Of a stretch of DNA of 64,000 nt, positions 9,395 through 62,805 are shown piece by piece. Under the pieces are notes generated by a model. That model worked only from the letters and a program-made list of their open reading frames with translations, did not search any database and was not told the origin of the DNA. How positions within the stretch are numbered: the stretch's first letter is position 1; each line of letters opens with the position of its first letter. The stretch covers positions 160,001 to 224,000 of the forward strand of contig CAXXNO010000008.1 in assembly GCA_963663235.2 (NCBI GenBank), written 5' to 3'. A program made the position numbers and the translations under genes. Origin of the DNA: Dehalococcoidia bacterium (GTDB lineage: Bacteria; Chloroflexota; Dehalococcoidia; Bin125).

Positions 9395-9492
9395 TGGCTA
9401 TGCTTCCACGGGCGTGGATGCAGTCGCATTCGCTTGAGCGATCTTTTTTCCACGGCGTTGCCGAGAACATTGAGGAATCGAGAGGGTGACTC

Positions 9493-11985: not shown

Positions 11986-12223
11986 CGTCGGCGAGACTGA
12001 GCGGGATTTCGGAGAGGCAAGGGGGTCCCTGTCGGCCGATCTTGCTGAGGGTGATCACCGGCGAACGCCTGATCTACAGGAGTCGGGATGGTGGGTTGGT
12101 GGTCCGGCCCTCATTCGACCGGAGGCGGTGTAGCGTGGACAGGACGCGTGCTGGGCAGGGAGGGCGCCGGCGCGGGCTCCACGAGATGCGCCGCGTCGAT
12201 CCCCCCACCTCGGTGACCGCTGC

Positions 12224-13351: not shown

Positions 13352-13384
13352 AGGCTGTGAGCCGACGAGGAGCGCGGAACAGTA

Positions 13385-14269
13385 ATGCAGAGAGCGCTCA
13401 CGCTCCAGAAGACGATCGTGCAGCCTCGTACGCGCAACGCACTTCTGGCAGCGTGTCTCTTGGGTCCCACGCTTGTCTTGCTCGGCGTTCTGTTCGTCTA
13501 CCCTCTTGTCGACGGTGTGTTGATACGAAGTTTTTCTGATCCTGAGGTGGGGTTTCAGAACTATACGCGTCTCTACAGTTCTGTAGCATTCCGGAACATC
13601 CTGCGACTCACGTTCGAGATAGCGTTGTACACGACGCTGGTGTGCCTACTTCTTGCGTATCCATTCGCTTATTTTCTAACGACACTGCCGAAGCGGCGTG
13701 CACAATTCTTTTTGGCGCTCAGCCTCGTTCCATTCTGGACCGCGATCCTCGCCCGCCTTTATGCCTGGACAGCGATATTAGGGCGCCGCGGTATCATCAA
13801 CGATTGGTTGATAGAGGCCAACCTTATCGATGAGCCGATCGATCTTCTGTTCAACCGTACCGCGGTGATCATCGGCATGGTCCACATTCTGCTTCCATTC
13901 ATGATCATCATTCTCTATTCCACCATGATCGCGATCGACCGCGAGCTGCAAGATGCTGCAAGAAGCCTTGGAGCCAGCGGCTTTCAGACCTTTCGGCGTG
14001 TGTTCCTCCCACTCTCGATGCCTGGCGTCTACGCGGGTGTCCTCCTGGTCTTCATCATCTCGCTTGGATTTTTCATCACACCGGCTGTGCTGGGTGGCGG
14101 GGGCGACATCACTATCGCCATTTTCGTCCAACAGCAGGTGAGCATCTTGAATTGGGGCGTGGCTAGCGCCATGAGCATGGTGCTGCTCGTGGTTACAATC
14201 ATTCTCTTCTTCGTATTCAACCGATTGTTCGGCGCCGAGCGGATGGTAGCGGGAGCCTTGCGCGGATGA
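13385..14269 (+). CDS. ABC permease (PotB-like)
   Basis: Several TM segments; EAA-type loop DAARSLGAS. Confidence 0.9.
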   Translation: MQRALTLQKTIVQPRTRNALLAACLLGPTLVLLGVLFVYPLVDGVLIRSFSDPEVGFQNYTRLYSSVAFRNILRLTFEIALYTTLVCLLLAYPFAYFLTTLPKRRAQFFLALSLVPFWTAILARLYAWTAILGRRGIINDWLIEANLIDEPIDLLFNRTAVIIGMVHILLPFMIIILYSTMIAIDRELQDAARSLGASGFQTFRRVFLPLSMPGVYAGVLLVFIISLGFFITPAVLGGGGDITIAIFVQQQVSILNWGVASAMSMVLLVVTIILFFVFNRLFGAERMVAGALRG

Positions 14270-15093
14270 CCGTGGTGCGCAGAGTCAGCCCTATGAGAGT
14301 CGTTCTCTACATCGTCTTCGTGGGCGTGCTCATCTTCTTGTTCCTGCCGCTTATCGTGGTGATTCCCATTTCGTTCAACCCCGGAACAGTATTGCGGTTC
14401 CCTCCCGATGGCATCTCGCTGCGCTGGTACAACGACTTCTTTGGCGATCAGCGCTGGCTCGACGCTGCGTGGCTGAGCCTGCGCCTTGGCATCACCGTAG
14501 CCATTCTTGCAACCGTGTTAGCGCTCGGAGCCGCCGTCGCCCTGACGCGCTTCGTGACCGTGGGGAAGCCGCTGCTGCGGGCATTGATCCTGTCACCCCT
14601 CATCGTCCCCCTCATCGTCACGTCCATCGCCGTCTTCGAAGTCTTCAATGAACTCGGTCTCCTGCGATCTTTCTGGGGGCTCGTTCTTGCTCACACGATT
14701 TTGGCTCTGCCATTTGGCGTGATCATTATCGAGAGCGCATTGAGGAATTTCGACGTCACGCTGGAAGAGGCGGCTATGAGTCTCGGGGCGTCGCGCCTGG
14801 TCGCGTTCCGCAGGATCACCGTGCCGTTGATCGCGCCTGGTCTGTTCGGCGCAGCGGTCATCGCCTTCATTACTTCATGGGACGAAGTGGTTATGGTTCT
14901 GTTCGTCGGCGGTGCCAGGAACCAGACTCTCCCGGTCAGAATGTTTCAGTTCCTCGAGACGCAGATTCGTCCGACGATTGCGGCGATTTCGACGCTCTTG
15001 ATTGTCGCGTTGCTGATAGCCCTTGTTCTCCGTCAACTCTTAATCCTTCGCCAGCGGCGCCGGATGGGTTCTGTCAGATCTCAGGGCTCGTAA
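14266..15093 (+). CDS. ABC permease (PotC-like); last 8 codons supplied by an IS6 end
   Basis: EEAAMSLGAS, FITSWDEV and TLPV motifs. Confidence 0.9.
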   Translation: MTVVRRVSPMRVVLYIVFVGVLIFLFLPLIVVIPISFNPGTVLRFPPDGISLRWYNDFFGDQRWLDAAWLSLRLGITVAILATVLALGAAVALTRFVTVGKPLLRALILSPLIVPLIVTSIAVFEVFNELGLLRSFWGLVLAHTILALPFGVIIIESALRNFDVTLEEAAMSLGASRLVAFRRITVPLIAPGLFGAAVIAFITSWDEVVMVLFVGGARNQTLPVRMFQFLETQIRPTIAAISTLLIVALLIALVLRQLLILRQRRRMGSVRSQGS

Positions 15094-15110
15094 CTGTAGC
15101 GGAGCCTCGC
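15067..15110 (+). mobile_element. Solo IS6-family terminal inverted repeat
   Basis: GGTTCTGTCAGATCTCAGGGCTCGT is identical over 25 bp to the reverse complement of 62605-62629. Confidence 0.85.
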
Positions 15111-15119
15111 CCCCGACTC

Positions 15120-16361
15120 TGACCTGCCCCCCCAAAACTGATCCACGCGGAGTGAGAGGATTCCGGGGATCGGGAAGGGAGCCGGCATGGCACGCAAGCG
15201 GTACGCGGCCGAGGAGATCATCGGCAATCTGCGGGAAGCGGAAGTGGCCTTGGCCCAGGGCCAGACGATCGGAGCGGTGGCGCGGACGCTTGGGATCAGC
15301 GAGCCGACCTCTTACCGCTGGCGCCGGGAGTACGGCGGGTTGCGGGTCGATCAGGCGAAGCGGCTGAAGGAGCTCGAACGGGAGAACAGCCGCCTGAAGC
15401 GGCTGGTGGCGGACCAGGCGTTGGACAATGCGATGTTGCGAGACGTCGCAGCGGGAAACTTCTGAGCCCGGCCAAGCGGCGCCGGGCGACCACCCATCTC
15501 ACCGACCAGTACGCCGTGTCCGAGCGGCGGGCCTGCCAGGTCACTGGCCAGGCGCGGGCGACGCAGCGCTCTGTGCCCCGGCCGTCCACGGATGAGCCGG
15601 CGCTGATCGCGCGAATCGTCGCCCTGGCCACGCGCTTCGGCCGCTACGGCTACCGCCGCATCACGGCCCTGCTGCGTCAGGAAGGCTGGCGCGTGAACCA
15701 CAAGCGGGTCGAACGGCTCTGGCGCCAGGAAGGCCTGCGGGCCCCCGTGAAACAGCCCAAGCGGGGCCGCCTCTGGCTCGGGGACGGCTCGCTGGTGCGG
15801 CGGCGGGCCGAACGGCCCCACCACGTCTGGTCCTACGACTTCGTCTTCGACCGCACCGCCGAGGGGCGCCCGGTGCGGATCCTCGCCATCGTGGACGAGG
15901 ACCACGCGCGAGTGCCTGAGTCTCGACGTGGCCCGCCGGCTGTGCAGCGACGACGTCCTGGCGCGGCTGGCCCAGCTCTTCGTCGAGCGCGGGCCGCCGA
16001 CGTTTCTGCGGTCCGACAACGGCCCGGAGTTCACCGCCACCGCGGTGCGGGACTGGCTGCACCGGGTCGGGGTCACGACCCTCTTCATCGAACCGGGCAG
16101 TCCCTGGGAGAACGGCTATGTGGAGTCCTTCAACGGCAAGCTGCGCGACGAGTGCCTCAACCGCGAACGCTTCGACACGCTGCTCGAAGCCCAGGTCCTC
16201 ATAGAGGGCTGGCGGCGGGAATATAACCAGATCCGGCCCCACAGTGCGCTGGGATATCGCCCCCCGGCCCCCGAGACCCAGCAACCCCGGGAAGGTCCCC
16301 TGCCAATCCTCCCGGCGATCGGACTAACTTAACGACTGGTACAACGATCGGGGGCAGGTCA
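15120..16361 (+). mobile_element. IS3-family element, copy 1 (orfA 15187-15465; orfB ~15462-16332 with extra frameshift at ~15900)
   Basis: IR TGACCTGCCCCC/GGGGGCAGGTCA; 5 bp duplication GACTC (15115-19, 16362-66); slippery GGGAAAC at the orfA end; WSYDF, SDNGPEF and ENGYVESFNG motifs. Confidence 0.93.
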
Positions 16362-19858: not shown

Positions 19859-20264
19859 TTACCCGGCCGCGCCGGCCTCGGTTGCGAGTAAGCGGGCGGC
19901 GGGGCTAAACGCGGCGTGCGCGGCGGCCGCCTTGGCCGCGTCGTAGGTCGCCGAGTAGCGGCGCACCATGGCCGAGGTCGAGTGCCCGAGGAGGTATTGC
20001 ACGTCCAGCTCCCGGGCGTGGTTCCCGATCGCCCAGGTGGCGAAGGTGTGGCGGAAACGGTGGGGATTGGCGTGGACGCCGGCCCGGACCCCCAGGCGCT
20101 GGAAGAGCGTCCCCAAGAGGGACGGGTTCATCGGACGCCGCGGCTGCGTCCGCCGCGGGATGGTGAGGAACAGGGCTCCGGGGACCGCGCCGCGGAAGCG
20201 GTCGACGTAGTCCCGCAAGGCGCCGGCGGGCCCGGCGCCTTGCGGGACTACGCGCTGTTTGCGC
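19859..20264 (-). pseudogene. C-terminal fragment of a third tyrosine integrase (int3)
   Basis: RKQRVV...HANPHRFRHTFATW...LGHSTSAMVRRY, nearly identical to int1; 5' part removed at an IS end. Confidence 0.9.
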
Positions 20265-37101: not shown

Positions 37102-37146
37102 CTTTTAATCCGAAGGTCCAGGGTTCGAACCCCTGAGGGCCCACCA
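37102..37146 (+). repeat. 3' half of tRNA-Lys (attR of island 1 / attL of the next element)
   Basis: CTTTTAATCCGAAGGTCCAGGGTTCGAACCCCTGAGGGCCCACCA; 44/45 identity to 6386-6430. Confidence 0.93.
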
Positions 37147-37285
37147 CCACGCTTCTTTATTAGGCCGGGCTGCAATCCGGTCGAAACCGGGTCTGGAGCT
37201 TCGGACTGCAACGGTTCTGCTCCGCGATTCGCTTGACTTCATCCCCCGATCAGAGCGTCCATGGATGGGCGAAAGGGGGGCAATC

Positions 37286-38245
37286 ATGGTCGCGGAACTG
37301 GTACTTCAGACGGACGACGGCATGGGTCTGGGGGAGGCGATCGCGGCCTACCTCGCCGCCTGCGATGTCGAAGGGAAAAGCCCCCGCACCGTCGACGCCT
37401 ACGCCGAGACCCTGCGCCGCTTCCAGGCCGTCTGCCTCGCCGAGGCCCTGCCGGCCCGGGTCGCCGACTTCCGTCCTCCCCACGTCTACGCGTTCCTCAA
37501 GGCCGTCGCCGACAGCGGCGTCTCGCTGGGCACCCGGCACCGCCGCTTCCGCGAGACCCGCGCCTTCTTCTCCTGGTGCCTGCGCATGGGCGCCTGCGCG
37601 CGCCACCCCTTCACGGGCATCGCCAACGTGCGCGTGGAGCAGAAAGTGATCCAGCCGCTCAGTGAGGAGGACATCCAGGCCCTCCTGGCGGTCTGCGATT
37701 CCGGCGACGAGTTCGGCTGCCGCAACCGGGCCATCATCTTGCTCTTCCTCGACACCGGGATGCGCTACGCGGAGCTGCACCAGCTCACCCTGGCCGACGT
37801 GTCCTGGGAGGACCGCCGGATCCACATCCGCCACGGCAAGGGCCGCAAGCAGCGGGTGGTGCCGTTCGGCGATGGGCCGGAAGCGGCGCTGCGCGGATAC
37901 ATCGACCGCTTCCGCGGCGAGGACGAGGGACCGTTGTTTCTGACCATCTCACGCTGGGGGGAGTCGCGGCGCCCGATGAACAAATACCTGTTGGGCACCC
38001 TGTTCGCGCGGCTCGGCGAGCGGGCCGGCGTGCACGCCAACCCGCACCGCTTCCGCCATACGTTCGCTACCTGGGCCATCGAGAACCATGCGCGGGAGCT
38101 GGACGTGCAATACCTGCTCGGCCACTCGACGTCGGCGATGGTCCGTCGTTACTCCGCGACCTACGATGCCGCGAAAGCGGCCGACGCGCACGCCGCGTTC
38201 AGCCCCGCGGCGCGGTTTCTGGCGAGGTCGAACGGGACCGGTTAA
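37286..38245 (+). CDS. Intact tyrosine recombinase/integrase int2 (319 aa)
   Basis: Full catalytic set: TGMR, GKG, HRFRH, LGHS, RRY; RBS GGGGGG; leader homologous to that of int1. Confidence 0.95.
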   Translation: MVAELVLQTDDGMGLGEAIAAYLAACDVEGKSPRTVDAYAETLRRFQAVCLAEALPARVADFRPPHVYAFLKAVADSGVSLGTRHRRFRETRAFFSWCLRMGACARHPFTGIANVRVEQKVIQPLSEEDIQALLAVCDSGDEFGCRNRAIILLFLDTGMRYAELHQLTLADVSWEDRRIHIRHGKGRKQRVVPFGDGPEAALRGYIDRFRGEDEGPLFLTISRWGESRRPMNKYLLGTLFARLGERAGVHANPHRFRHTFATWAIENHARELDVQYLLGHSTSAMVRRYSATYDAAKAADAHAAFSPAARFLARSNGTG

Positions 38246-38268
38246 CCCTCTGCTTCCCAAGCAGAGGG
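38246..38268. other. Symmetric att-like core CCCTCTGC-TTCCCAA-GCAGAGGG
   Basis: Perfect 8 bp inverted arms around the tRNA-Gly(CCC) anticodon loop, starting directly after the int2 stop codon. Confidence 0.7.
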
Positions 38269-38592
38269 CCCACGGCGCCTGCGGCCAGCGCATGGCTTTC
38301 CTATCTGGGGAGGCAGACCGCACGGAATAATGAGCCCCCACAGCCCGGGGAAGCGCCCTTTGCGGTCGCTTGCATTCATCCCTGCAGCCTACGGCGGGCG
38401 CGCGTGCCCTGCGGCATGCCGGACAGCGCTGTGCATCCGCTCGGAGGTGGCCGCCCGCGAACAGACGAATGGAGCCCGCCATCGGACGACTCGCGCGGGC
38501 AGGTCACGGATCGACCCGAACCTCGTCCCACAATTCCCAAAATGGCCGACGTTCTCCCTTATCCTTCATACGACCCACTAGGGAGAACCACG

Positions 38593-40242
38593 ATGCGAAT
38601 AATCCTCATCGCTCTCTTGACGGGGATGCTGCTGCTGGCGTGCAGCCAGGGCACGGGAAGCAATACGCCCGACGATGCGGTTCCTGCCGAAACTCTGGCC
38701 ACGGACAGGAGCCATTCTTCGCGAGTCTTCCCTCGAGGAGAGACCTCGCTCGAAGAGAGGATCGCCAACTACCCCACCGTCGTCAGAGCTCGGATGACCT
38801 CCGAGTCCACCGAGGTGGTCGCCGGGGCGGGGAGGTTTGAGGGTAACTACTACGCTGCCTTGAAGTTCGACCTTGAAGTCGGTGAGTACCTGAATGGGAC
38901 AGGTGCCGACAACATCACGGCGATATGGGTCGCAGCCGATGAATTCGGCACCCGCCAGGAAGCCGAAGACGCGTTGCCCGACATCCGCGCCCGAAGGGAT
39001 ACGCAATGGGACAATCGGGAGGCGGTCTTCTTCCTGCAAGACCTGGGTGATGCTCAGGCTTTTCCCCTTGATGTCTTACCTACATTGCAGGGTGACAACC
39101 ATTACTACCTGTCGTTCGGTTTCTCTCAGCCCCACCGGGACGGCTACAGCCTGTCCAGCGAATACAGTAAGTTGTGGCTGCCGGCGACCGAGATCGCTTC
39201 GGGCGCTACCGGCCAGAGCGGGACCGTGCGGGACGGCCAGGAGTTCCTCCTGGCCGTCCCGACGGACCCAGCCGGTGCAGGCGCAAGTGGCGCGAGCACA
39301 CCGGCGGGTCCAACGATAACGCTGGGCGACCTGAAACAGCGGCTCGCAGCTGTTACCGCTGAGCTTAGCGCCAGCGACGGCTCGGAAGAATACAAAGAAT
39401 GCGTCCGGTTTAAATATCAGAATGAGCGCGAGGATAGGTACTTCATAGCCGAGGGTGAGGGTCGGCGAGTCTACGTCACGCATCCTACACATGAATTCGA
39501 CTCCGGCCAGCCCGCCGGCACCACGATCTATGAAGACGAAGTCGTCAGCGCCGAATCAACTGAACAGAGATCAAGGCTCTGGTTCGATGGACGGGACTCT
39601 GCCCTATTCGATGTCGTGACTGGCGACCTCGTACCAGAGCGCTCTGCATTTACATTCACCCAGACCGTGGTCTCTGCGCGGCCGATTCCCGCAGGAGAAT
39701 ACAAGGTCAATAACAATTACCTTCTGTTGGCCTTCATTCCCTGCAATCACGTCTTCACCTACGAAATGACGATGACCGTGACGGCACCCGAGGGCACTGT
39801 TCACGAGGCGTTCTTCGATCCGGTGGTGATTGGCGCGGCGGTAGGCGCCGACGGCTCACGTGGTGTTTTGAAGCCGGCGTCGTTTGCCATCGAGGGGGTG
39901 GGCACAACAGACATCAAGCGGATCCGGTGGGAGTCAGCAAGGGTCGAGATGCAGATTGATCCGCCCGGGAGGCCCACAGGCCATCACATCGACTTCATCG
40001 CCCTAGACGGGACGGTCGTGCTGCGGCTGGATTTCGACGACGCTGTCGACGTTGTTGAGGAGGGCCGCACGCGCGCGCTGACCTGGGGGGTATGCGAGCG
40101 GTCTTGGAATGACGGAGACCTTCTGATGCTGCGCATCAGTGAAAGTCCTCCCGGCCTGACTGGCGCGACCAACGATGTGCTATGTCCCCCGCCACCGCCT
40201 CAGAACCTGACGGCTTCCTTTCCTCCACGCAGGACTCGGTGA
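38593..40242 (+). CDS. Large lipoprotein of unknown function; possible truncated fibronectin-III start at the 3' end
   Basis: MRIILIALLTGMLLLAC lipobox; PPQNLTAS.. / ..QDSVTLTW split by a frameshift near 40220. Confidence 0.7.
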   Translation: MRIILIALLTGMLLLACSQGTGSNTPDDAVPAETLATDRSHSSRVFPRGETSLEERIANYPTVVRARMTSESTEVVAGAGRFEGNYYAALKFDLEVGEYLNGTGADNITAIWVAADEFGTRQEAEDALPDIRARRDTQWDNREAVFFLQDLGDAQAFPLDVLPTLQGDNHYYLSFGFSQPHRDGYSLSSEYSKLWLPATEIASGATGQSGTVRDGQEFLLAVPTDPAGAGASGASTPAGPTITLGDLKQRLAAVTAELSASDGSEEYKECVRFKYQNEREDRYFIAEGEGRRVYVTHPTHEFDSGQPAGTTIYEDEVVSAESTEQRSRLWFDGRDSALFDVVTGDLVPERSAFTFTQTVVSARPIPAGEYKVNNNYLLLAFIPCNHVFTYEMTMTVTAPEGTVHEAFFDPVVIGAAVGADGSRGVLKPASFAIEGVGTTDIKRIRWESARVEMQIDPPGRPTGHHIDFIALDGTVVLRLDFDDAVDVVEEGRTRALTWGVCERSWNDGDLLMLRISESPPGLTGATNDVLCPPPPPQNLTASFPPRRTR

Positions 40243-40435
40243 CCCTGACGTGGACTGACTTGCCCCATCTCCAAGTCGTGGCGACAGGTGCTGTCGCATT
40301 GGAGGCGAGGTGCGCGTCGTTCACCGAGCGGGGGCGAAGCCCGTCGCGCCCCGTATACGCACGCTCCGACGGGGCGTCGCGGTGTTCCTGGCGCCCCAGG
40401 GCCGGGTTGGAGCGTCCGAAGGATCGGCGGGGCCC

Positions 40436-41557
40436 TGTGGTGTCTCAGAAGTCGATCGGCATTGCCTAAATGCTTTGATCGCCGGAGCCTCCAGGCGGAG
40501 GCACGGCGATGTGGATCTATTGGCGGCTCTTTCTGATCGCGTTGCGCCTGACGGGGCGCCGACGCCAAGACTTTGTCCTAGAGAACCTGGTGCTGCGGCA
40601 ACAGCTGGCGGTCTGGGAGCGCACGGGGCGGCGCCCGACGTTGGCGGCCGCGGATCGGCGCTTCTGGTCCGTGACCGCGCGGCACTGGCGGGGGTGGCGT
40701 CGGCATGTCCAGCTGGTGCAGCCCGCCACCGTGGTCGGTTGGCACCGGACGGCGTGGCGGCGCTACTGGGGTTGGAAGAGCCGCGGACGACCTAGGGGTC
40801 GTCCGCGCATCGATCCCATCATCCGCTGCCTGATCGTCCGGATCGGGGCGGAGAATCCGACCTGGGGCGTGCGGCGCATCGCGGCCGAGCTGGCGGTGCT
40901 GGGCCATCCGGTCAGCGCGGCAACGGTGCAGCGGTATCGCGGGGACCGCCCTCCCTCGCCCAGTTGGCGGACCTTTCTGCGCCTGCACGCGTCCGAGATT
41001 TGGGCGGCCGACTTTTTCACCGTGCAGACGCTTACCTTGCGGACGTTCTACGTCTTCTTCGTGATCAGTCACGACCGCCGCCGGATCCTGCATGGGAACG
41101 TGACCGCGCACCCCACGGCGCCCTGGGTCTGGCGGCAGATCATCGCCGCCACCCCGTGGAACACGGCGCCTCGCTTCCTGATCCGCGACCGGGATCGCAA
41201 CGACGGCGGTCACTTCGTGCCGAAGGCGGCGGCCCTGGGGATCGAAACGATCTTGACCCCCGTGCGAGCCCCCAAAGCCAACGCGATCGCGGAGCGGGTG
41301 ATTGGCACGATCCGGCGAGAGTGTCTGGACCATCTCATCGTGCTCACGGAACGGCATCTCCGGCGGGTGCTCCGCGAGTACGTCGCCTACGACAACGACA
41401 CGCGTCCCCACCAGTCTCTGGGCGACCAGCCGCCATCCGGTCCGCGGACGCCGACGCTCCGTGGTGGGGCGCAGCGCCTAGCGAGCCGGCCGATTCTGGG
41501 CGGCTTACACCATGAGTACTTCTGGGATGCAGCGTGATGAGGTTTTGAAACACCACA
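40436..41557 (+). mobile_element. TGT...ACA rve IS, copy h, chimeric; open ORF 40509-41537
   Basis: Left end TGTGGTGTCTCAGAAG and 5' half diverged from copy a; from 41001 onward it matches copy a. Confidence 0.9.
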
Positions 41558-41844
41558 GGTCTTGCCTGATTGAGCATCAACCTTGTGATTGTGGTCACAA
41601 CCATCCCGGACGAGGGGGGCACAGACACGCGTCCCGGACTCTGCAGTCGGTCTCAGGATGATCTAGACTCCCTCGAGTCGTACCGCAGGAGTTCGGGACG
41701 CTCCAGCGCATCCGATTATCGATGGGGGGCTACCTACTCGCAGATATCAGTACTCGCTTTTCCACTGTGATCGCTCGTGGCTGGCTTGCACTCGGTTGAG
41801 GCGACACAGAAATTAACCGGAGACGCTTCGGAAAGAGGGGAACT

Positions 41845-42249
41845 TTGAAGAAAACGTATTCGTCACCGGAGGGCCACTGGATCACTCCGATCAAGATCAA
41901 TCACTCGCACGGCATCAGGGCGGGGAACATGATCTTCGTGGGAGGGCAAGTCGATTTCGACGATAAGGGAAATCTGCAGCATCCGGGTGACATCGTGACC
42001 CAGACTCGCGCGGCGATGGATAACCTGAAGCGGATAGTGGAAGATCTGGGCGCCACGATGGATGACGTGGTGCAGATCAACACCTTCTATGCCGGAGAAG
42101 CCACCGAGGAGGACTGGGTACGCTGCGCCGAGATCCGGTTCGGCTACTTCAAAGCCCCCGGCCCAACGGCTACCGGCATACACGTGGGGAAACAACTGAA
42201 CCTCCCTGGTCTCATGGTGGAGGTCAATGCCATCGCGGTCGTTGATTAG
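41845..42249 (+). CDS. RidA family protein (copy 2)
   Basis: Same translation as 8990-9394. Confidence 0.85.
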   Translation: MKKTYSSPEGHWITPIKINHSHGIRAGNMIFVGGQVDFDDKGNLQHPGDIVTQTRAAMDNLKRIVEDLGATMDDVVQINTFYAGEATEEDWVRCAEIRFGYFKAPGPTATGIHVGKQLNLPGLMVEVNAIAVVD

Positions 42250-42347
42250 TGGCTATGCTTCCACGGGCGTGGATGCAGTCGCATTCGCTTGAGCGATCTT
42301 TTTTCCACGGCGTTGCCGAGAACATTGAGGAATCGAGAGGGTGACTC

Positions 42348-43568
42348 ATGACACGCAGGAAGCCTATATGGTTGGCAACCGGAATCCTCGTGGCGTTTGG
42401 ACTTCTCGGCGTTGCGGCGGCGTGTGGGGACGACGAGGACGAAGCGGAACAAGCCGTCGCGCATGCAGTACCCGAGGCTGTGGACTCCAGAGCGCAGCTG
42501 GTCGCGCAGTTCCCGGCAGACGTTCAGCCCCTACTCGCGGATATTCCGGAACGCGTCATCGCGGCTCTCTGGGACGTGCGGCAGCAAGTACCGGGCACCG
42601 TGGTGTTCCGGATGTCGGCTGGTGAACTGGAAGATGCCCAAAACCGAGCGTACCGCGAGGAGTGGGGCAGAATTACGGGCTGGGAGGTTCTTCAGGCGGG
42701 CGATTTTCCGACTCTCGCCGACGTGAAGCTCCAGGCAGAGTCGGGCAACCCAGAGTGGGATATCGTCGAATTAGGTCTCGCGAATGCCGATTTGGCAGCG
42801 GACGAGGGTCTGCTTGAGAAGCTAGACCTCAGCCTTCTCCAGCACGCGACCGACCAGTACCCCGAAGGCTATACGTATACCGACAACTGGATCACCTATA
42901 CCCAGTCCATGGTGGTCCTTGTGTTCAGGACCGATGTCTACCCGCTTGACGGCCCGCATCCTGAGATGGTCACGGACCTCTTCAACACCGCGGACTTTCC
43001 CGGTAAGCGGTGCATCTTTGGCTTTCCGCAGTACGCAGGCACGCTCGAATATGCGCTCGTTGCCGACGGGGTAGCAGTCGACGAACTGTACCCTCTGGAT
43101 GTCGACCGCGCCCTGGCGAAGTTGGACACTGTCAAGGACGATGTCGTGTGGTGGGGGACCGGTGGCGAAGCGATCCAGTTCATCATCGACGGTCAGTGCG
43201 ACATGGGGGTCGTCTGGCACGGGCGGCCGGCAATTCGGGTCCGAGACGAGCCAGACCTTCCGATCGCCGCAGTGTGGGATGGCGCCATGCTGGCCCCCGG
43301 CGCCCTGATGATTCTCAAGGACGCGCCTCACTACGACGCTGCGATGTCACTCCTCGCTTACTCGCTCACTCCGCAGAACCAGTGCGACCTGCTGAATGAC
43401 ATTGGCTATGGTGTGCCGTTGGACGAGTCGTGCCTGAGCGATTTTGGGGTGGAGTGGAGCGTTACGGCAGAACACGTCGCGCAGAGCGCCAGTGACGAAG
43501 ATGCTGCCTACTATGGAGCGAATATCGACCAGCTCATCGAGAAGTTTAATGCTTGGTTGACCGGCTAG
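42348..43568 (+). CDS. ABC substrate-binding lipoprotein (copy 2)
   Basis: Same translation as 9493-10713. Confidence 0.85.
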   Translation: MTRRKPIWLATGILVAFGLLGVAAACGDDEDEAEQAVAHAVPEAVDSRAQLVAQFPADVQPLLADIPERVIAALWDVRQQVPGTVVFRMSAGELEDAQNRAYREEWGRITGWEVLQAGDFPTLADVKLQAESGNPEWDIVELGLANADLAADEGLLEKLDLSLLQHATDQYPEGYTYTDNWITYTQSMVVLVFRTDVYPLDGPHPEMVTDLFNTADFPGKRCIFGFPQYAGTLEYALVADGVAVDELYPLDVDRALAKLDTVKDDVVWWGTGGEAIQFIIDGQCDMGVVWHGRPAIRVRDEPDLPIAAVWDGAMLAPGALMILKDAPHYDAAMSLLAYSLTPQNQCDLLNDIGYGVPLDESCLSDFGVEWSVTAEHVAQSASDEDAAYYGANIDQLIEKFNAWLTG

Positions 43569-43802
43569 TGAGAGTGGAAGGTCCGATTTTGCGTGGTCAT
43601 CCCACTGCTGAGGGACGGATCTCTAGGTGAGAGTTGTATGACGGGGCAGGGAACAACAGGAGCCTCCGTGTCGGTGTTAAGGCGGAAGTAGCGGGCCGAG
43701 AGACGTTGCTGGACGGAGTAGATGTGTGCCTCACACCTAATGGCGACCGCTACATGATGGGGCAGTCGCGCTTCGCCTCGGCGAAGTGATTTCGAGCTTC
43801 AC

Positions 43803-44840
43803 ATGATGGGCGCCCCATTCGCTCTGAGTGTCATCAGCGACGGACGCCCAGCGCCCGGAGATCGGAACTACCAGCGACGCTTTGAGGAACTCCTGGAGGA
43901 AGCGCGCGTCGCCGATAGGCTCGGATTCCGCGGGTTTTGGACCTGCGAGCAGCATTACGCGGCCGACGATGGGCATCTGGGTGCACAGTTCGCAGCCTTG
44001 GCCGGCTTGGCGACAAGCACGTCACGGCTGCGGCTCATGACGAATACTCTGCTGTTGCCGTTGTACCAGTGGAGGCAAGTCGTTGAGCAGGCTGTCGTGG
44101 TCGATCTCCTGTCCGGCGGCCGGCTGGAGATCGGGGTCGCGGGGGGTGGCAACGAGCGCGACTTCGATATGTTCGGTGTCGACTTCCACCGGCGCGGAGA
44201 GCTCATGGAACGGGGCATTCCGTTCATACGCCAAGGACTGGTGGCGGGCGAACTCGCCGACGGGCCGGGCGGTACCCTGTTGCCAATGACCCCCCGCCCA
44301 GTGCAAGAGCGTGTCCCAATCCTCGTCGGTGGCCTCTCTCCTCCTGCTGTAGACCGCGCGGTGCGGTTGGGCGATGGGCATCTCGCTTATGACTACGAAC
44401 GGTTCGAGGAGAATCTGCCGAAGTTCTGGGACAGTCAACTGCGGCCGGCGATGGACCGGCACGGTCGGTCCCTCGCAGATTTTCGATTCACGGCCACGGC
44501 GCCGTTCTGGGTGTCGGAAGATCCGGAGCGTGATTGGGAGATCCTCTACAAACCCGCCTACGCATTCCACATGGGCCAGTACCTGAAGCGCTACCGCTTC
44601 CGCACAGCGCAAGACGGCCAACAATATGTGCCGCCTGGTGTAGCCACCGACTTCCGGCGAGAAGATGTGCTCGTCGACACACCAGAGAACATCGCGCACC
44701 GCCTCCTGGCTACGTGGCGAAAAGCGCCTTGGCACGAGTTCAGCTTTTTCTGCCGACTTCCCGGTATCCCACATGAACGAACGCTGGAGCATCTTGAATT
44801 TGTAGCCCATCGACTAGTTCCGCTGCTTACCGCTGGCTGA
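43803..44840 (+). CDS. LLM-class oxidoreductase (copy 2)
   Basis: Same translation as 10948-11985. Confidence 0.88.
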   Translation: MMGAPFALSVISDGRPAPGDRNYQRRFEELLEEARVADRLGFRGFWTCEQHYAADDGHLGAQFAALAGLATSTSRLRLMTNTLLLPLYQWRQVVEQAVVVDLLSGGRLEIGVAGGGNERDFDMFGVDFHRRGELMERGIPFIRQGLVAGELADGPGGTLLPMTPRPVQERVPILVGGLSPPAVDRAVRLGDGHLAYDYERFEENLPKFWDSQLRPAMDRHGRSLADFRFTATAPFWVSEDPERDWEILYKPAYAFHMGQYLKRYRFRTAQDGQQYVPPGVATDFRREDVLVDTPENIAHRLLATWRKAPWHEFSFFCRLPGIPHERTLEHLEFVAHRLVPLLTAG

Positions 44841-45078
44841 CGTCGGCGAGACTGAGCGGGATTTCGGAGAGGCAAGGGGGTCCCTGTCGGCCGATCTTGC
44901 TGAGGGTGATCACCGGCGAACGCCTGATCTACAGGAGTCGGGATGGTGGGTTGGTGGTCCGGCCCTCATTCGACCGGAGGCGGTGTAGCGTGGACAGGAC
45001 GCGTGCTGGGCAGGGAGGGCGCCGGCGCGGGCTCCACGAGATGCGCCGCGTCGATCCCCCCACCTCGGTGACCGCTGC

Positions 45079-46206
45079 ATGAGTCGATCGGCAAGCGCAG
45101 AGGGCGCCGCCGAAGTGCGCCTCGAGGGGATTCAGCACCGCTTTGGCGAAGTCTGGGCCGTCCGCGGGATCTCCCTGACAGTTAAGCCTGGAGAGTTCCT
45201 CACCCTCCTCGGTCCGAGCGGATCGGGGAAGACCACGCTGCTCCGCATCATCGGTGGGCTCCTCCGGCCTTCTGAAGGCCGCGTGTACGTCGCCGGTCAG
45301 GACATCACGGCCCACCCGCCTCAAAAGCGCAACATGGGCTTCGTGTTCCAGAACTATGCTCTCTTTCCCCACTTGTCGGTGTACGACAACGTGGCCTTTC
45401 CTCTGCAGATACGCAGAATGCGGCGCCAAAAAATACGCGATCGGGTGAACGAGGTCCTGACCCTGGTCCAGCTCACTGGTTTGGAGAACCGGTACCCGGC
45501 TCAGCTGAGTGGGGGTCAGCAGCAGCGCGTCTCGCTCGCTCGCGCGATCGTCTTCTATCCCAACGTCTTGCTCATGGACGAGCCGTTGGGATCCCTTGAT
45601 AAGCGCTTGCGTCAGCAGTTGCAGTTGGAGCTTCGGCACCTCCAACACGATCTTGGCATCACGGCCATTTACGTCACACACGATCAAGAAGAAGCATTTG
45701 CCATGTCTGATCGGATTGCGGTCGTGCACGAGGGAGAACTTCGCCAGCTCGATCAGCCGTCGCAGGTCTACCGGAAGCCAGGTGACTCCTTCATCGCTGA
45801 CTTTGTCGGCGACCTGAACCGCTTTGAGGGAGAGCTCGTCCAGAGCAACGGTCCGACGGGTGTGTTGAGGACGTCGGACGGGATGGAGATCCTGATCAGC
45901 CTGCATGGCGTCGCGCAGGGAAGTCGACAGTTCGTCTGCGGCATCCGACCCGAGCGCGTGGAGGTCGGCGAAAACGCCGTGGGAGATAATCGCTACCGCG
46001 GAGTAGTCCGCGCTCTGACCTTTCAAGGTACCCACTACCGTTGTGAACTCGAGCTCCCGAACGGGAGGAGGGTATCCGCTTCAATCTACCGAGAAGATCC
46101 TGGAGTGCGGGAGGGGGAGGAAGTCTGGTTGGGATGGAACGCCGAGGAGGCACTGGTATTTGGCGGAGACTTCAACTCGAATGAGTCCGGCTTCAATGAG
46201 CGCTGA
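45079..46206 (+). CDS. ABC ATPase PotA-like (copy 2)
   Basis: Same translation as 12224-13351. Confidence 0.93.
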   Translation: MSRSASAEGAAEVRLEGIQHRFGEVWAVRGISLTVKPGEFLTLLGPSGSGKTTLLRIIGGLLRPSEGRVYVAGQDITAHPPQKRNMGFVFQNYALFPHLSVYDNVAFPLQIRRMRRQKIRDRVNEVLTLVQLTGLENRYPAQLSGGQQQRVSLARAIVFYPNVLLMDEPLGSLDKRLRQQLQLELRHLQHDLGITAIYVTHDQEEAFAMSDRIAVVHEGELRQLDQPSQVYRKPGDSFIADFVGDLNRFEGELVQSNGPTGVLRTSDGMEILISLHGVAQGSRQFVCGIRPERVEVGENAVGDNRYRGVVRALTFQGTHYRCELELPNGRRVSASIYREDPGVREGEEVWLGWNAEEALVFGGDFNSNESGFNER

Positions 46207-46239
46207 AGGCTGTGAGCCGACGAGGAGCGCGGAACAGTA

Positions 46240-47124
46240 ATGCAGAGAGCGCTCACGCTCCAGAAGACGATCGTGCAGCCTCGTACGCGCAACGCACTTC
46301 TGGCAGCGTGTCTCCTGGGTCCCACGCTTGTCTTGCTCGGCGTTCTGTTCGTCTACCCTCTTGTCGACGGTGTGTTGATACGAAGTTTTTCTGATCCTGA
46401 GGTGGGGTTTCAGAACTATACGCGTCTCTACAGTTCTGTAGCATTCCGGAACATCCTGCGACTCACGTTCGAGATAGCGTTGTACACGACGCTGGTGTGC
46501 CTACTTCTTGCGTATCCATTCGCTTATTTTCTAACGACACTGCCGAAGCGGCGTGCACAATTCTTTTTGGCGCTCAGCCTCGTTCCATTCTGGACCGCGA
46601 TCCTCGCCCGCCTTTATGCCTGGACAGCGATATTAGGGCGCCGCGGTATCATCAACGATTGGTTGATAGAGGCCAACCTTATCGATGAGCCGATCGATCT
46701 TCTGTTCAACCGTACCGCGGTGATCATCGGCATGGTCCACATTCTGCTTCCATTCATGATCATCATTCTCTATTCCACCATGATCGCGATCGACCGCGAG
46801 CTGCAAGATGCTGCAAGAAGCCTTGGAGCCAGCGGCTTTCAGACCTTTCGGCGTGTGTTCCTCCCACTCTCGATGCCTGGCGTCTACGCGGGTGTCCTCC
46901 TGGTCTTCATCATCTCGCTTGGATTTTTCATCACACCGGCTGTGCTGGGTGGCGGGGGCGACATCACTATCGCCATTTTCGTCCAACAGCAGGTGAGCAT
47001 CTTGAATTGGGGCGTGGCTAGCGCCATGAGCATGGTGCTGCTCGTGGTTACAATCATTCTCTTCTTCGTATTCAACCGATTGTTCGGCGCCGAGCGGATG
47101 GTAGCGGGAGCCTTGCGCGGATGA
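46240..47124 (+). CDS. ABC permease PotB-like (copy 2)
   Basis: Same translation as 13385-14269. Confidence 0.9.
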   Translation: MQRALTLQKTIVQPRTRNALLAACLLGPTLVLLGVLFVYPLVDGVLIRSFSDPEVGFQNYTRLYSSVAFRNILRLTFEIALYTTLVCLLLAYPFAYFLTTLPKRRAQFFLALSLVPFWTAILARLYAWTAILGRRGIINDWLIEANLIDEPIDLLFNRTAVIIGMVHILLPFMIIILYSTMIAIDRELQDAARSLGASGFQTFRRVFLPLSMPGVYAGVLLVFIISLGFFITPAVLGGGGDITIAIFVQQQVSILNWGVASAMSMVLLVVTIILFFVFNRLFGAERMVAGALRG

Positions 47125-47948
47125 CCGTGGTGCGCAGAGTCAGCCCTATGAGAGTCGTTCTCTACATCGTCTTCGTGGGCGTGCTCATCTTCTTGTTCCT
47201 GCCGCTTATCGTGGTGATTCCCATTTCGTTCAACCCCGGAACAGTATTGCGGTTCCCTCCCGATGGCATCTCGTTGCGCTGGTACAACGACTTCTTTGGC
47301 GATCAGCGCTGGCTCGACGCTGCGTGGCTGAGCCTGCGCCTTGGCATCACCGTAGCCATTCTTGCAACCGTGTTAGCGCTCGGAGCCGCCGTCGCCCTGA
47401 CGCGCTTCGTGACCGTGGGGAAGCCGCTGCTGCGGGCATTGATCCTGTCACCCCTCATCGTCCCCCTCATCGTCACGTCCATCGCCGTCTTCGAAGTCTT
47501 CAATGAACTCGGTCTCCTGCGATCTTTCTGGGGGCTCGTTCTTGCTCACACGATTTTGGCTCTGCCATTTGGCGTGATCATTATCGAGAGCGCATTGAGG
47601 AATTTCGACGTCACGCTGGAAGAGGCGGCTATGAGTCTCGGGGCGTCGCGCCTGGTCGCGTTCCGCAGGATCACCGTGCCGTTGATCGCGCCAGGTCTGT
47701 TCGGCGCAGCGGTCATCGCCTTCATTACTTCATGGGACGAAGTGGTTATGGTTCTGTTCGTCGGCGGTGCCAGGAACCAGACTCTCCCGGTCAGAATGTT
47801 TCAGTTCCTCGAGACGCAGATTCGTCCGACGATTGCGGCGATTTCGACGCTCTTGATTGTCGCGTTGCTGATAGCCCTTGTTCTCCGTCAACTCTTAATC
47901 CTTCGCCAGCGGCGCCGGATGGGTTCTGTCAGATCTCAGGGCTCGTAA
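47121..47948 (+). CDS. ABC permease PotC-like (copy 2)
   Basis: Same translation as 14266-15093. Confidence 0.9.
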   Translation: MTVVRRVSPMRVVLYIVFVGVLIFLFLPLIVVIPISFNPGTVLRFPPDGISLRWYNDFFGDQRWLDAAWLSLRLGITVAILATVLALGAAVALTRFVTVGKPLLRALILSPLIVPLIVTSIAVFEVFNELGLLRSFWGLVLAHTILALPFGVIIIESALRNFDVTLEEAAMSLGASRLVAFRRITVPLIAPGLFGAAVIAFITSWDEVVMVLFVGGARNQTLPVRMFQFLETQIRPTIAAISTLLIVALLIALVLRQLLILRQRRRMGSVRSQGS

Positions 47949-47974
47949 CTGTAGCGGAGCCTCGCCCCCGACTC

Positions 47975-48127
<153 letters not shown>

Positions 48128-52629: not shown

Positions 52630-52783
52630 CACACCACCTGTCCGGTCTGTCCCATCACCGAGTCGAAGCGACAGGTACTGGTCTTCTGGGGTAAGGGTCA
52701 GGCGGTAAATCCTGCTGTGTGGACAGCGCTCGTACTAGGGTCCCGCTGGGCGTCCCGCCAAAAGCCAAACTGGGAGTATCCAC

Positions 52784-54027
52784 TGACCTGCCCCCCCAGA
52801 ACCGGTCCAGATCCTGTGCGAGGATTCGGGCCGGTGCGAAGGGAGTCGGCATGGCACGCAAGCGGTACGCGGCCGAGGAGATCATCGGCCACCTGCGGGA
52901 GGCGGAGGTGGTGCTCGCGCAGGGGGAATCGGTCGCGCCGGTCGCGCGCCGCCTCGGCGCGGCCGAGCCAACGTATTACCGCTGGCGGCGGGAGGACGGG
53001 GGGCTGCGGGTCGACCCGGCCAAGCGGCTGAAAGAACGGGAGCGCGAGAACAGTCGGCTGAAGCGGGTGGTGGCCGATCAGGCGCGGGCCAACGCGATGG
53101 TGCGGGACGTCGCAGCGGGAAACTTCTGAGCCCGGCCAAGCGGCGCCGGGCGACATCCTACCGCACGGACCCGTACGCGGTGGCGGAGCGGCGGGCCTGC
53201 CCGGTCACCGGCCAGGCGCGGGCGACACAGCGCGACGTGCCCCGGCCGTCCCCGGATGCGCCGGCGCTGATCGCGCGCAGCGTCGCGCTGGCCCCCCGCT
53301 GCGGCCGCTACGGCTCCCGTCGCATCACGGCCCGGCTGCGCCAGGCGGGCTGGCGGGTGAACCCCAAGCGGGTCGAGCGGCGCTGGCGTCAGGAAGGCTG
53401 GCGGGTCCCCGGGAAGCACCCCCAACGGGGCCGCCGCTGGCTCGCGGCCGGCTCGCGGGTGCGGCGGCGGGCCGAGCGGCCGTCCCACGTCTGGTCCGAC
53501 GCCTTCGTCTTCGACCGCACCGCCGAGGGGCGCCCGGTGCGGATCCTCGCCCTCGTGGATGAGGACCACCCGCGAGGGCCTGCGTCTCGACGTCGCCCGC
53601 CGACGGCGCCGCGACGACGGCCTGGCGCGGTTGGCCCAGCTGTTCGTCGAGCGCGGGCCGCCGACGTTTCTGCGGTCCGCCAACGGCCCGGCGTGCACCG
53701 CCACCGCGGTACGGGACTGGCTGCACCGGGTCGGGGGCACGACCCGCTTCATCGAACCGGGCAGGCCTTGGGCGAACGGCTCTGGGGAATCGTTCAACGG
53801 CAAGCTGCGCGACGCGTGCCTCAATCGCGAGCGCTTCGACACCCTGCTGGAAGCCCAGATCCTCATCGCGGGCTGGCGGCGGGAGGACAACCCGATCCGC
53901 CCCCACCGTGCCCTCGGCTACCGCCCCCCCCGCCCCGGAAACGCAGCAACCCCGGGAACCGTCCCATGACGCGCGTCCCGGCGATCGGACTCACTTAACG
54001 ACTGGTACAACGATCGGGGGCAGGTCA
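52784..54027 (+). mobile_element. IS3-family element, copy 2, heavily mutated
   Basis: Same IRs and GGGAAAC as copy 1; catalytic motifs changed (WSDAF, SANG). Confidence 0.92.
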
Positions 54028-54390
54028 CTACAGCGCGACCTACGGCAGCGCCCAGGCAGCCGAGCGCCACGCTGCCTTCTCGCCCGGCGACCAGATGCTC
54101 GTGTAGCCGCCCGAGGCCGCCCGTCCCATCGGCGCCAGCGCCCCCCAGATTCGCGCGCGGTCTGCACGGGCCCTGCTTCGCTGCCCACGCGGGAGCCACA
54201 TACCCGGACGGGAAAGCACGTCCGCCGGACGCCCCGTAGGGTGCGGCGGTACGCCGGGGAAAACGCGGATCCACGCCGGCAGGCTCCGCGACCTGCTCCA
54301 TACTGCCCCAGTCGTCACCCTGTAACCTCAGGGCAGCAGACTATCGCTTCTCGGATGCCGCGCGCCCCCTGAAGCGGGGAGGGACTCCCA

Positions 54391-61675: not shown

Positions 61676-62629
61676 GGTTCTGTCAGATCTGAGGGCAGCG
61701 GGGCCAACGATGCGTGGTGATCCGGCGAGCGTTGATGGTGTCCTAGGCGACCTGCATCTCCTGGATCAGGGACCGCCAGCGGGCGACGAACAGCGGGCGC
61801 CGCGTCGCCAACGGGATCGGTAGTCCGGGCCGGGGCGGAACGCGAAAGTACTGGCGCAGCGCATCGAAGGCCGCGCAGAACTGGGCAGCGGAAGCGAACC
61901 GCCCGAAGCCCCGCATCGGATAGTAGCGCTGCTTGATGGCGCGGTGATCCTGCTCAATCCAGTTGTTGAGGTATTGATTGCAGCGATGTCGCACCTTCCG
62001 CCCGACGATCCACCGGATCGCCTTGCGATACGCGGGATGCGCGTCGGTCGTGATGCGTAAGGGCTTCCGTTCGGCGATCTGTATGAGACCCCGCAGGAAG
62101 CGTCGCGCGGCATGCTTGTCGCGGTGCGCGCTCAGCATCGAATCGAGCAGCGCGCCCTCCCGGTCGATCGCGCGATAGAGGTAGCACCATCGCCCGGCGA
62201 CCTTCACGTAGGTCTCATCGATGTACCAGGAGACGCCCGCGCGACCGCGCCGCTTGGCGCGAAGCCGGTCCGCCAGGAGTGGCGCGAAGCGGAACTCCCA
62301 ATCGCGGATCGTCTCATGCGTCACCGTGTAGCCTCGCTCGAGGAGCAGTTCGGCGACGTCCCGGAAGCTGAGCTTGTACCGCAGGCGCCACAGCACGGCG
62401 AGCAGCACGAGGTCCGTCGGGTACTGGAGATCGTTGAAGGGCGTGCCGGTCCGCTCGTTGAAGCGCCGTCCACACGCGCGACAGTTGAATCGCTGGTAGC
62501 CTAGCGTCGTGCGATGCCTGCGCTTGGTCGTCGCAGTCGAGCGGCAGTGCGGACAGTGCATCGGCGTCTCCTCGTTGCGTCATGAACGAGGCGACGCTAC
62601 GCCGACGAGCCCTGAGATCTGACAGAACC
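61676..62629 (-). mobile_element. IS6-family element; transposase 61743-62561 with N-terminal Zn finger
   Basis: IR GGTTCTGTCAGATCT(C/G)AGGG; CPHC/CRAC, WYIDETYVKV and EQDHRAIK motifs. Confidence 0.93.
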
Positions 62630-62805
62630 GGATCCCAAAGAGCCGCCGCAGCGCCTAGGCCAAGTAGCGTGCCAGGTCGGTACCGTGGCTGTAGGAGTGA
62701 TTGGAGGGAACGGGATCCGGACGCGGATCGAACGTCCCCTCGGCGATCTCGGTCGCGCGGACCTGCGCAGCGCCTTAGACTCTCGGCGCTTGAGAGGCGG
62801 CACCA

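Follow-up and report, generated by a model that had tools for sequence, protein, structure and literature searches.

A transversion footprint of MutT type carried by defective insertion-sequence lineages in a Dehalococcoidia genome and its relatives

The 64,000-nucleotide stretch of a Dehalococcoidia genome analysed here (the window; contig CAXXNO010000008.1, positions 160,001–224,000) contains, at 52784–54027, an insertion sequence (IS) of the IS3 family that is 1244 bp long, has a G+C content of 74.5% and ends in TGACCTGCCCCC and GGGGGCAGGTCA. This element bears a footprint of A:T>C:G transversions (A>C and T>G) that is real, MutT-like in kind and stronger once the changes are polarised; entire lineages of defective IS copies bear it in three genera, and selected or recent DNA lacks it. 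As its origin we tentatively favour, with confidence somewhat short of even, a past mutator phase of MutT type, of which DNA free of selection at the time kept the record. The genome carrying the window, referred to as G000, comprises 14 contigs (2.75 Mb, 67–70% G+C, 91.9% complete); other genomes of the same family are numbered in the same way (G003, G005, G010, etc.), and 65 family genomes were searched. The focal IS3 subfamily is called the high-GC form, and its low-GC relatives the copy-1 form, after the copy that served as reference in the initial annotation of the window. The focal copy, its parts and copy 1 are as follows.

52784–54027, forward strand: focal copy, a non-autonomous IS3-family element of the high-GC subfamily, one of 12 full and 5 contig-end copies
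52784–52795: left terminal inverted repeat, TGACCTGCCCCC, identical in 12 of 12 full copies
52851–53129, forward strand: orfA, 92 aa, matching HTH_Tnp_1 (PF01527) with 60.9 bits over 52851–53126, with many A>C and T>G missense changes
53117–53123, forward strand: heptamer GGGAAAC in the orfA frame, of the form X XXY YYZ, kept in all copies compared
53123–53569, forward strand: first part of the orfB remnant, in the -1 frame, with HTH_21 and, judging from its location, the beginning of the rve core
53561–53569, forward strand: one-base insertion breaking orfB, GAGGACCAC as against GAGTA-CAC in intact relatives
53559–53969, forward strand: second part of the orfB remnant, in another frame, with rve/rve_3
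54016–54027: right terminal inverted repeat, GGGGGCAGGTCA; the A/T sites of the last 29 bases are unmutated
15119–16361, forward strand: copy 1, a low-GC relative (69.6% G+C), 85% identical to the focal copy

The terminal inverted repeats, with the 5'-TG...CA-3' ends of IS3-type elements, are found in all 12 full copies, and the GGGAAAC heptamer is, from its sequence, a putative -1 frameshift site leading from orfA into orfB. The stop codon of orfA, TGA, reads TGC in some copies and in some reads. The initial annotation had placed the element correctly and had described the amino-acid differences between its orfB and that of copy 1 as mostly A>C or T>G changes, with no stop gained and both catalytic aspartates replaced. 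This description holds: 34 of the 49 differences are purely of these two kinds, eight are mixed and seven are other; there is no gained stop, and both Asp codons are GCC, the first at 53501–53503 (motif WSYDF changed to WSDAF) and the second at 53679–53681 (RSDNGPEF changed to RSANGPAC). The domain scores of orfB are lower in the focal copy than in copy 1 (39.6 vs 64.8 bits for HTH_21, 18.6 vs 35.2 for rve and 75.6 vs 102.1 for rve_3). The +1 insertion in orfB is common to the focal copy, copy 1 and the G003 copies, and is absent from six more distant relatives. Since copy 1 and the G003 copies also carry it, this insertion predates the hypermutation, and the transposase gene had therefore lost its function before the hypermutation took place. 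A relative with the same terminal repeats, the GGGAAAC heptamer and an open orfA lies elsewhere in the genome (G000:C14:9712–10955, hereafter the C14 copy); it is ~72–75% identical and has a complete orfB with the DDE motifs WSYDF, RSDNGPEF and ENGYVESFNGK, and is a candidate supplier of transposase to the defective copies. Copy 1 is bordered by a 5-bp direct repeat, GACTC. None of the 12 full high-GC copies has a visible target-site duplication (e.g. flanks 52772–52783 and 54028–54039), nor do the G003, G005, G010 and C14 copies inspected, and such duplications were accordingly dropped as a proof of transposition for the high-GC copies.

A raw comparison of the focal copy with copy 1 yields 183 substitutions, among them 33 A>C and 27 T>G, i.e. 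60 A:T>C:G, for five changes in the reverse direction (C>A 5, G>T 0); the remainder consists of 53 G<->C changes, 62 transitions and three A>T. Transitions, which had been reported as nearly absent, thus make up 62 of the 183 raw differences. The changes were polarised solely by counting the alignment columns in which outgroup copies agree. In the columns where copy 1 agrees with the G003 copy designated G003a, 45 of the 48 focal-lineage changes are A:T>C:G (20 A>C and 25 T>G), the other three being one T>C, one G>A and one C>A; with three outgroups, the ratio is 40 of 43. Conversely, the 132 changes on the side of copy 1 have an ordinary spectrum and comprise 52 G:C<->C:G, 59 transitions, 15 G:C>T:A, four A:T>C:G and two A:T>T:A. 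In a maximum-likelihood (ML) tree built from 18 of the 20 G000 copies and nine copies from three other family genomes (two short contig-end pieces being omitted), the focal copy groups with the G003 copies, to which it is 95% identical, and copy 1 forms a long branch of its own. The background share of the class, taken from recent duplicates in G000 (at least 99.5% identity), is 25/104, against which 45 of 48 has a binomial p of 1e-24. Per site, 14% of the 322 A/T sites have changed in the focal lineage, for a single G:C>A:T change at 777 G/C sites. According to PMC12318082, A:T>C:G makes up 97% of the base substitutions in Pseudomonas aeruginosa mutT mutation-accumulation lines, at 1.32e-8 per A/T site and generation; the 94% observed here, on both strands, comes close to that figure, in line with the 8-oxo-dGTP-type spectrum initially proposed. 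At this rate, which comes from another species, the change of 14% of A/T sites would correspond to the order of ten million generations.

The mutated sites counted across the focal family number 65 (32 A and 33 T, always changed towards C or G). At position +1 from them, G or C is found in 88% of cases, as compared to 67% at unmutated sites (C, 42 vs 35%; G, 46 vs 32%), and at position -1 G is found in 38% as compared to 42%. Apart from this preference for G or C at +1, no context effect was seen. Of the A/T sites at codon positions 1, 2 and 3, respectively 20%, 22% and 13% are mutated (p = 0.46). By contrast, the termini (element positions 1–68 and 1215–1243) have no mutated site among their 32 A/T sites, as against 65 of 319 in the body of the element (p = 0.0015). 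We read the codon-blind load and the spared ends as neutral decay of the coding sequence together with selection for recognisable ends. The spared termini imply that the mutated elements kept moving, from which we infer continued mobilisation in trans. The G+C content has risen from 71% to 74.5%.

The load had been ascribed to a single IS3 copy; in fact, it is common to the 12 full and five partial copies of the high-GC form in G000, as well as to relatives in two other genera. The G000 copies are 96–99.5% identical to one another, with 73.6–75.0% G+C; the copy-1 form is represented by two copies, 98.6% identical. When 15 of the high-GC copies were polarised against the G003a and G003b copies, 91 derived alleles were obtained: 26 are present in all 15 copies (21 A:T>C:G), 44 are at intermediate frequency (38 A:T>C:G) and 21 are found in one copy only (6 A:T>C:G). 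Each full copy carries 37–51 derived A:T>C:G changes. In what follows, unpolarised A<->C and T<->G differences (A>C, C>A, T>G, G>T) are denoted A:T<>C:G. Each copy differs from its nearest copy by 4–19 differences of this class and 0–5 others, and for this reason we abandoned the per-copy phylogeny, in which the signature would sit on internal branches and private changes would be ordinary, as a test of coupling to transposition. Relative-rate tests among copies are weak (at best 10 vs 22, p = 0.05). Of 595 site pairs, 47% are incompatible, and linkage does not extend beyond 25 bp; this scrambling of phase could be due to recurrent hits, to gene conversion or to chimeras in the assembled repeats.

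Errors of sequencing or assembly were considered as an alternative. The scrambled phase beyond 25 bp speaks for such an artefact, as do two single-base insertions of the focal copy, at 53924 and 53959 (1244–1245 bp vs 1242–1243), which are missing from the contigs of all four public runs described below and are not seen in reads. Indel problems also exist elsewhere in the assembly: at G000:C4:535817–542344, rpoB has an open frame of 922 aa and rpoC is split into two frames of 1496 and 854 aa, whereas in relatives rpoB is one open frame of 1238–1419 aa and rpoC reaches up to 1593 aa. The G000 assembly thus probably carries single-base indel errors, and given these broken frames the indels in the IS copies are to be read cautiously. 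The substitutions fare differently. Contigs from four public runs belonging to four studies cover the flanks and the element, and the changes recur in them, with the same substituted letters and the same class of variants: within the element, 26 of 26 listed variant places are A:T<>C:G, while the 13 listed flank variants comprise five transitions, two G<->C, one A>T and five A:T<>C:G (Fisher p = 2e-5), 11 of these 13 places coming from the strain of one run only and two being found in a second run as well. Moreover, two other genera show the signature in assemblies of their own, the changes follow the phylogeny in a nested fashion, and the flanks and other repeats of the same assembly are normal. 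We therefore regard an artefact as extremely improbable. Note that the summed word depth over window 52744–54075 in runs X1, X2, X8 and X9 is 67–904 for the element and 0–17 for the flanks, a difference of tens of times in values that are not readable as a copy number; the element may be far more abundant in these samples than the 17 G000 copies account for. A run labelled sponge metagenome contained 0.28 of the words, from which we draw no inference on habitat, and no RNA run carrying the element is listed among public sequencing runs.

Full copies in other genomes of the family were found only in G003, G005 and G010, with fragments in G004, G009 and G015. The G003 copies of the focal clade, less mutated than those of G000, differ pairwise by 13/14, 20/28 and 7/8 A:T<>C:G differences. 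In G005, the copy designated G005b lacks the shared orfB frameshift and has been hypermutated independently: at 291 A/T sites that three other lineages have kept, it shows 63 changes, 53 of which are A:T>C:G. At the same 291 sites, the lineages of G003d, C14 and G010 show 14–22 A:T>C:G changes, and in those of G003d and C14 transitions are about as many; the G003d and C14 copies are intact, and the orfB of G010 is interrupted near its end. The sites mutated in G005b and in the focal family overlap twice as often as expected (22 vs 10.7, p = 6e-5), and catalytic motifs have been lost in parallel in independent lineages (e.g. WSYDF to WSDAF). Five intact sibling IS3 copies in G003, with the same ends, are 100% identical over 1240 bases; transposition as such therefore appears accurate. 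Outside the family, IS3 relatives present in several copies in seven genomes from other phyla have 21–35% of their variable columns in the A:T<>C:G class. A search of public genome contigs with the orfB C-terminus gave 80 loci of at most 78% identity in many phyla, a result that may leave out records of the window's own group, and the search of metagenome contigs for near relatives from which to derive population single-nucleotide polymorphisms returned only protein matches of 63% and 24% identity.

Within G000, the signature is specific to a few lineages. In a self-comparison of the genome, 1934 of the 2312 mismatches (84%) between focal-family pairs of 95–99.5% identity are A:T<>C:G. For other repeats, the corresponding figures are 309/1860 at 90–95% identity, 91/459 at 95–98%, 6/17 at 98–99.5% and 25/104 at 99.5% or more; the A:T<>C:G share in these other repeat families is 17–35%, and no other pair with at least eight mismatches exceeds 45%. 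As to the 7.6-kb internal duplication of the window (40495–48127 vs 7637–15247, 97.8% identical), 55 of its 134 differences are G<->C and 22 are A:T<>C:G, the G<->C excess probably stemming from a locally more divergent part. A scan of G+C content for other hypermutated islands gave 138 windows of at least 74% G+C and was rejected as too unspecific.

These comparisons bear on the proposal that the element had been silenced by a process akin to repeat-induced point mutation (RIP), or by another targeted defence that mutates repeated or mobile DNA. The restriction of the load to mobile-element copies, the parallel destruction of catalytic residues and the twofold overlap of mutated sites between independent lineages are what such a defence would produce. 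Yet, far from being silenced as a single copy, the mutated elements went on multiplying to 17 with intact termini, and their mutations are common by descent, with an overlap far above the twofold hotspot effect; the multi-copy families that would make the best targets are unaffected, including those that are 100% identical; the mutated positions are codon-neutral, and no motif surrounds them. Finally, we found no paper combining repeat-induced point mutation, bacteria, insertion sequences and transversions. Altogether, a RIP-like defence appears very improbable.

A second IS family carries the signature. A sensitive scan of 1170 pairs revealed 62 with a significant directional asymmetry, 12 of them outside the focal family, and six of these 12 involve an IS6-family element encoding a 272-aa transposase (window 61743–62561). 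The element itself, at window 61676–62630, has at least six near-identical copies in G000, and its active copies are 99.7–100% identical. The private changes of its relics and of the other forms are distributed as follows.

C12:39946–40612: shortened IS6 relic, 14 of 39 private changes A:T>C:G
C11:33200–33875: IS6 relic with an open frame and the changes Y>S, V>G and Y>D, 15 of 24 private changes A:T>C:G (16 of 52 with fewer outgroups)
C11:46827–47101: IS6 relic, 7 of 26 private changes A:T>C:G
Intact diverged IS6 copy: 3 of 65 private changes A:T>C:G
Shortened IS6 copy beside copy 1b: 0 of 29 private changes A:T>C:G
Active IS6 form: 2 of 41 private changes A:T>C:G

Two of the three relics have DETYVKV changed to DETSVKG, and by a rough estimate ~10–13% of their A/T sites have changed, near the 14% of the IS3 lineage. 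Relic IS3 fragments, in alignments that took in some flanking DNA, have ordinary spectra rich in G:C>A:T. It had been stated that pseudogenes other than IS also show the signature; the one case tested, an inverted integrase fragment (window 19859–20264), has 5 A:T>C:G among 37 changes, and the carriers that we found are the IS6 relics.

Another candidate explanation is a long-lived and still operating bias of the whole genome, visible only where selection is absent. We compared five core genes in 13 family genomes, counting the private changes of each genome at sites invariant in all others. In G000, 174 such changes include 23 A:T>C:G, 28 A:T>G:C, 53 G:C>A:T and 13 G:C>T:A; the A:T>C:G count is the highest of the 13 genomes, with ~16 expected from the ratio to A:T>G:C in the others, where 0–21% of private core-gene changes are A:T>C:G. 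Private changes strongly biased to G:C>A:T were observed in G004 (52/70) and G001 (77/114). At four-fold sites compared with sister genomes, which are saturated and confounded, A:T>C:G and A:T>G:C both number 65. The GC content at third codon positions (GC3) of the five genes is 0.889 in G000 and ranges in the family from 0.74 (G001) and 0.76 (G004) to 0.97 (G009), a hint that mutational regimes shift in this group. The presence of the signature in unselected IS relics of two families is in keeping with a genome-wide bias, as are the excess of A:T>C:G over G:C>T:A in core genes (23 vs 13) and the fairly frequent A:T<>C:G differences in small, neutral-looking samples (5 of the 13 flank variants and three of six differences in a segment shared with G003, described below). 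Against it stand the transition-rich recent duplications, the ordinary private changes of single copies (6/21), the G:C>A:T-rich relic IS3 fragments and the integrase fragment, as well as the fact that A:T>C:G does not exceed A:T>G:C in core genes (23 vs 28) and that GC3 is not near 1. The core genes thus speak against a regime of the 45:3 type persisting over a long time and are compatible with a limited phase. The first of the two options originally offered, a long-lived genome-wide mutator state, is weakened by the 23/174 core-gene changes, by the share of at most 25/104 in duplicates and by GC3, and we consider it improbable. The second, an episodic or element-linked process, fits better, either as an episode in the host or as a process linked to the element.

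The repair genes of G000 were examined for a cause. Six Nudix genes match TIGR00586 with 25.7–34.6 bits, all below the cut-off of 97.9; matches of similar weakness are all that is found in the 65 family genomes, and only three of 14 control genomes pass. As a guide to the presence or absence of MutT across the family, this comparison is uninformative. Fpg is present (282.9 bits), together with a MutY-like gene (205.7 bits, below its cut-off). Y-family polymerases are represented by one strong, DinB-like match and two weaker IMS matches, and no match to a Prim-Pol (IEE-like) polymerase was found in G000 at its 91.9% completeness. An IMS-domain gene (62 bits) occurs in two copies (G000:C12:57236–57634 and C9:142331–142729) inside a 9.3-kb duplicated segment that begins at the right end of the IS copy C12:52953–54202.

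We favour a past MutT-type mutator phase because the spectrum is pure, its 45:3 ratio calling for no further assumption, because its density is similar in two IS families and because ordinary transposition is accurate. The even load over codon positions, the contigs of the public runs and, as a hint, the core genes, in which G000 has the most private A:T>C:G changes, also speak for it. According to this scenario, a lineage failing to keep 8-oxo-dGTP out of its DNA would have accumulated A:T>C:G changes over many cell generations, this lineage being either the ancestors of the G000 host or a community member exchanging mobile DNA with it. The footprint would have been retained only where selection was absent, that is, in defective IS copies. 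Meanwhile, an intact relative sharing its ends, for instance the C14 copy, would probably have mobilised the high-GC subfamily in trans, and this mobilisation would have preserved the termini through selection and spread the mutated sequence to ~17 sites. The mutator regime would not have been genome-wide in the most recent period.

Several observations weigh against this scenario. First, recent duplications are rich in transitions (69 of 104 differences, for 25 A:T<>C:G), and only 11 of the 43 differences in segmental duplications beside an IS copy are A:T<>C:G; if a mutator phase is the right explanation, all comparators devoid of the signature must therefore post-date it. Second, hypermutated and ordinary sequences lie side by side: in G005, G005b and the far less mutated G005a, 81% identical, are arranged head to tail 4 bp (CACG) apart (G005:C1:578532–581016), and an ordinary IS3 orfA remnant directly adjoins the hypermutated IS6 relic on C12 of G000. 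Third, no neutral non-mobile DNA bearing the signature was found, the integrase fragment being the sole test. Fourth, the presence of the signature in three genera (those of G000, G003 and G005) requires several mutator phases or a shared donor. Fifth, a MutT defect is not demonstrable from the Nudix profile matches in the 65 family genomes.

A sixth point comes from a 3.3-kb segment of the window, 37102–40435 (G000:C8:197102–200435), which is 98.9% identical to G003:C2:4441–7769 and whose rightmost 2.2 kb match the end of the G003 contig C1 with 99.6% identity. Set against a core-protein identity of 73% between G000 and G003, this identity points to a very recent horizontal transfer. Nineteen of the 25 mismatches fall in one patch (37151–37248), and the six differences in the remaining 3186 bases consist of two transitions, one G<->C and three A:T<>C:G. 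The ordinary divergence of the segment is similar to that between the focal copy and G003a, which differ by three ordinary changes in ~1240 aligned bases. However, the segment has a single A/T>C/G change in the G000 direction. Had a quarter of its A/T sites been neutral in an identical regime, ~39 would have accumulated, a figure which presumes that segment and element spent the same time in the same cells.

A rival explanation is mutagenesis coupled to the element, in which A:T>C:G changes would be made when defective elements are copied or repaired, perhaps through inaccurate synthesis from oxidised dGTP while the elements are mobilised in trans or afterwards, possibly under oxidative stress. 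The changes would then build up only in a lineage that goes on moving. Such a process explains the confinement to IS without assumptions on timing: in three genomes only certain IS lineages bear the signature, DNA of comparable ordinary divergence in these genomes lacks it, the termini are spared, nearest copies differ mainly by A:T<>C:G, and heavily and lightly mutated copies are adjacent in G005. In addition, Y-family polymerases are encoded in the genome, and PMC12318082 reports that Pol IV misincorporates oxidised guanine nucleotides. On the other hand, the identical siblings in G003 and the 99.7–100% identical active IS6 copies indicate that transposition is not error-prone, two unrelated IS families that differ in their transposition chemistry show a similar density, the sequence context is unlike the Pol IV preference reported in that paper, and the per-copy tree is unreliable, as 47% of site pairs are incompatible beyond 25 bp. 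Nor does this process have a known mechanism: our literature search found no such process and no A:T>C:G footprint confined to insertion sequences. We therefore hold mutagenesis coupled to the element to be rather unlikely. The broader claim that this bacterial family subjects only its defective transposons to a dedicated or mobilisation-coupled A:T>C:G mutagenesis, through oxidised dGTP or a RIP-like defence, raising their G+C content, abolishing their function and leaving the chromosome clean, is in our view doubtful.

In bacteria, DNA without selection is generally considered to drift towards A+T, even in GC-rich genomes, in agreement with the abstract of PMC2936529; hence the long-standing puzzle of where high G+C content comes from. 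Here, unselected DNA of a bacterium with 68% G+C and of two related genera has moved the opposite way, by a single class of transversion and at 14% of A/T sites. If a past MutT-type phase is the correct explanation, defective IS copies would constitute a fossil record of mutator episodes in uncultured bacteria and would allow the frequency with which they drive genomes towards G+C to be addressed directly; if the process is tied to the element, it would represent a new kind of transposon-restricted mutagenesis in bacteria. In both cases, the element family would provide dated neutral markers able to separate the two explanations.

Among known systems, mutT mutators come first, such as the P. 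aeruginosa mutation-accumulation lines, Escherichia coli mutT strains and the long-term evolution experiment in its mutT phase. The likeness lies in a nearly pure A:T>C:G spectrum on both strands (94% here vs the 97% reported in PMC12318082) and in missense changes to Ala, Gly, Arg and Pro with few stops made. Unlike in these mutators, the footprint is seen here only in lineages of defective IS, in a genome from an uncultured bacterium in nature and in its relatives, at a density of 14% of A/T sites; recent duplications are free of it, and in core genes it does not dominate. Pol IV (DinB) is comparable in that it produces A>C transversions giving alanine and glycine, and a DinB-like gene is present in G000; however, its contribution at sites with a 5'G and/or a 3'C, reported in PMC12318082, is a preference not reproduced here, where G or C in general is favoured at +1, and localisation to IS copies is not known as one of its properties. 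With non-autonomous IS mobilised in trans, the focal subfamily shares a broken transposase gene, conserved inverted repeats, a high copy number and an intact relative with the same ends, the C14 copy; it departs from them in being full length rather than miniature, in having changed by one class of transversion instead of deletions and mixed substitutions, and in showing target-site duplications at none of 12 copies. Fungal RIP proceeds by C>T transitions, lowers G+C content, hits all sizeable duplicates and stops their proliferation. Like RIP, the process seen here has burdened repeated mobile DNA with a heavy load of a single class that destroys transposon coding capacity; in contrast to RIP, the changes are A:T>C:G and have raised the G+C content, identical multi-copy families have been spared, and the mutated copies have multiplied. 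Diversity-generating retroelements, lastly, change the adenines of one strand to any base by means of a reverse transcriptase and a template repeat. The resemblance is that of a directional, base-specific hypermutation of a defined stretch of DNA, the difference being that in the IS3 lineage the mutated sites are split evenly between A (32) and T (33) and change only to C or G.

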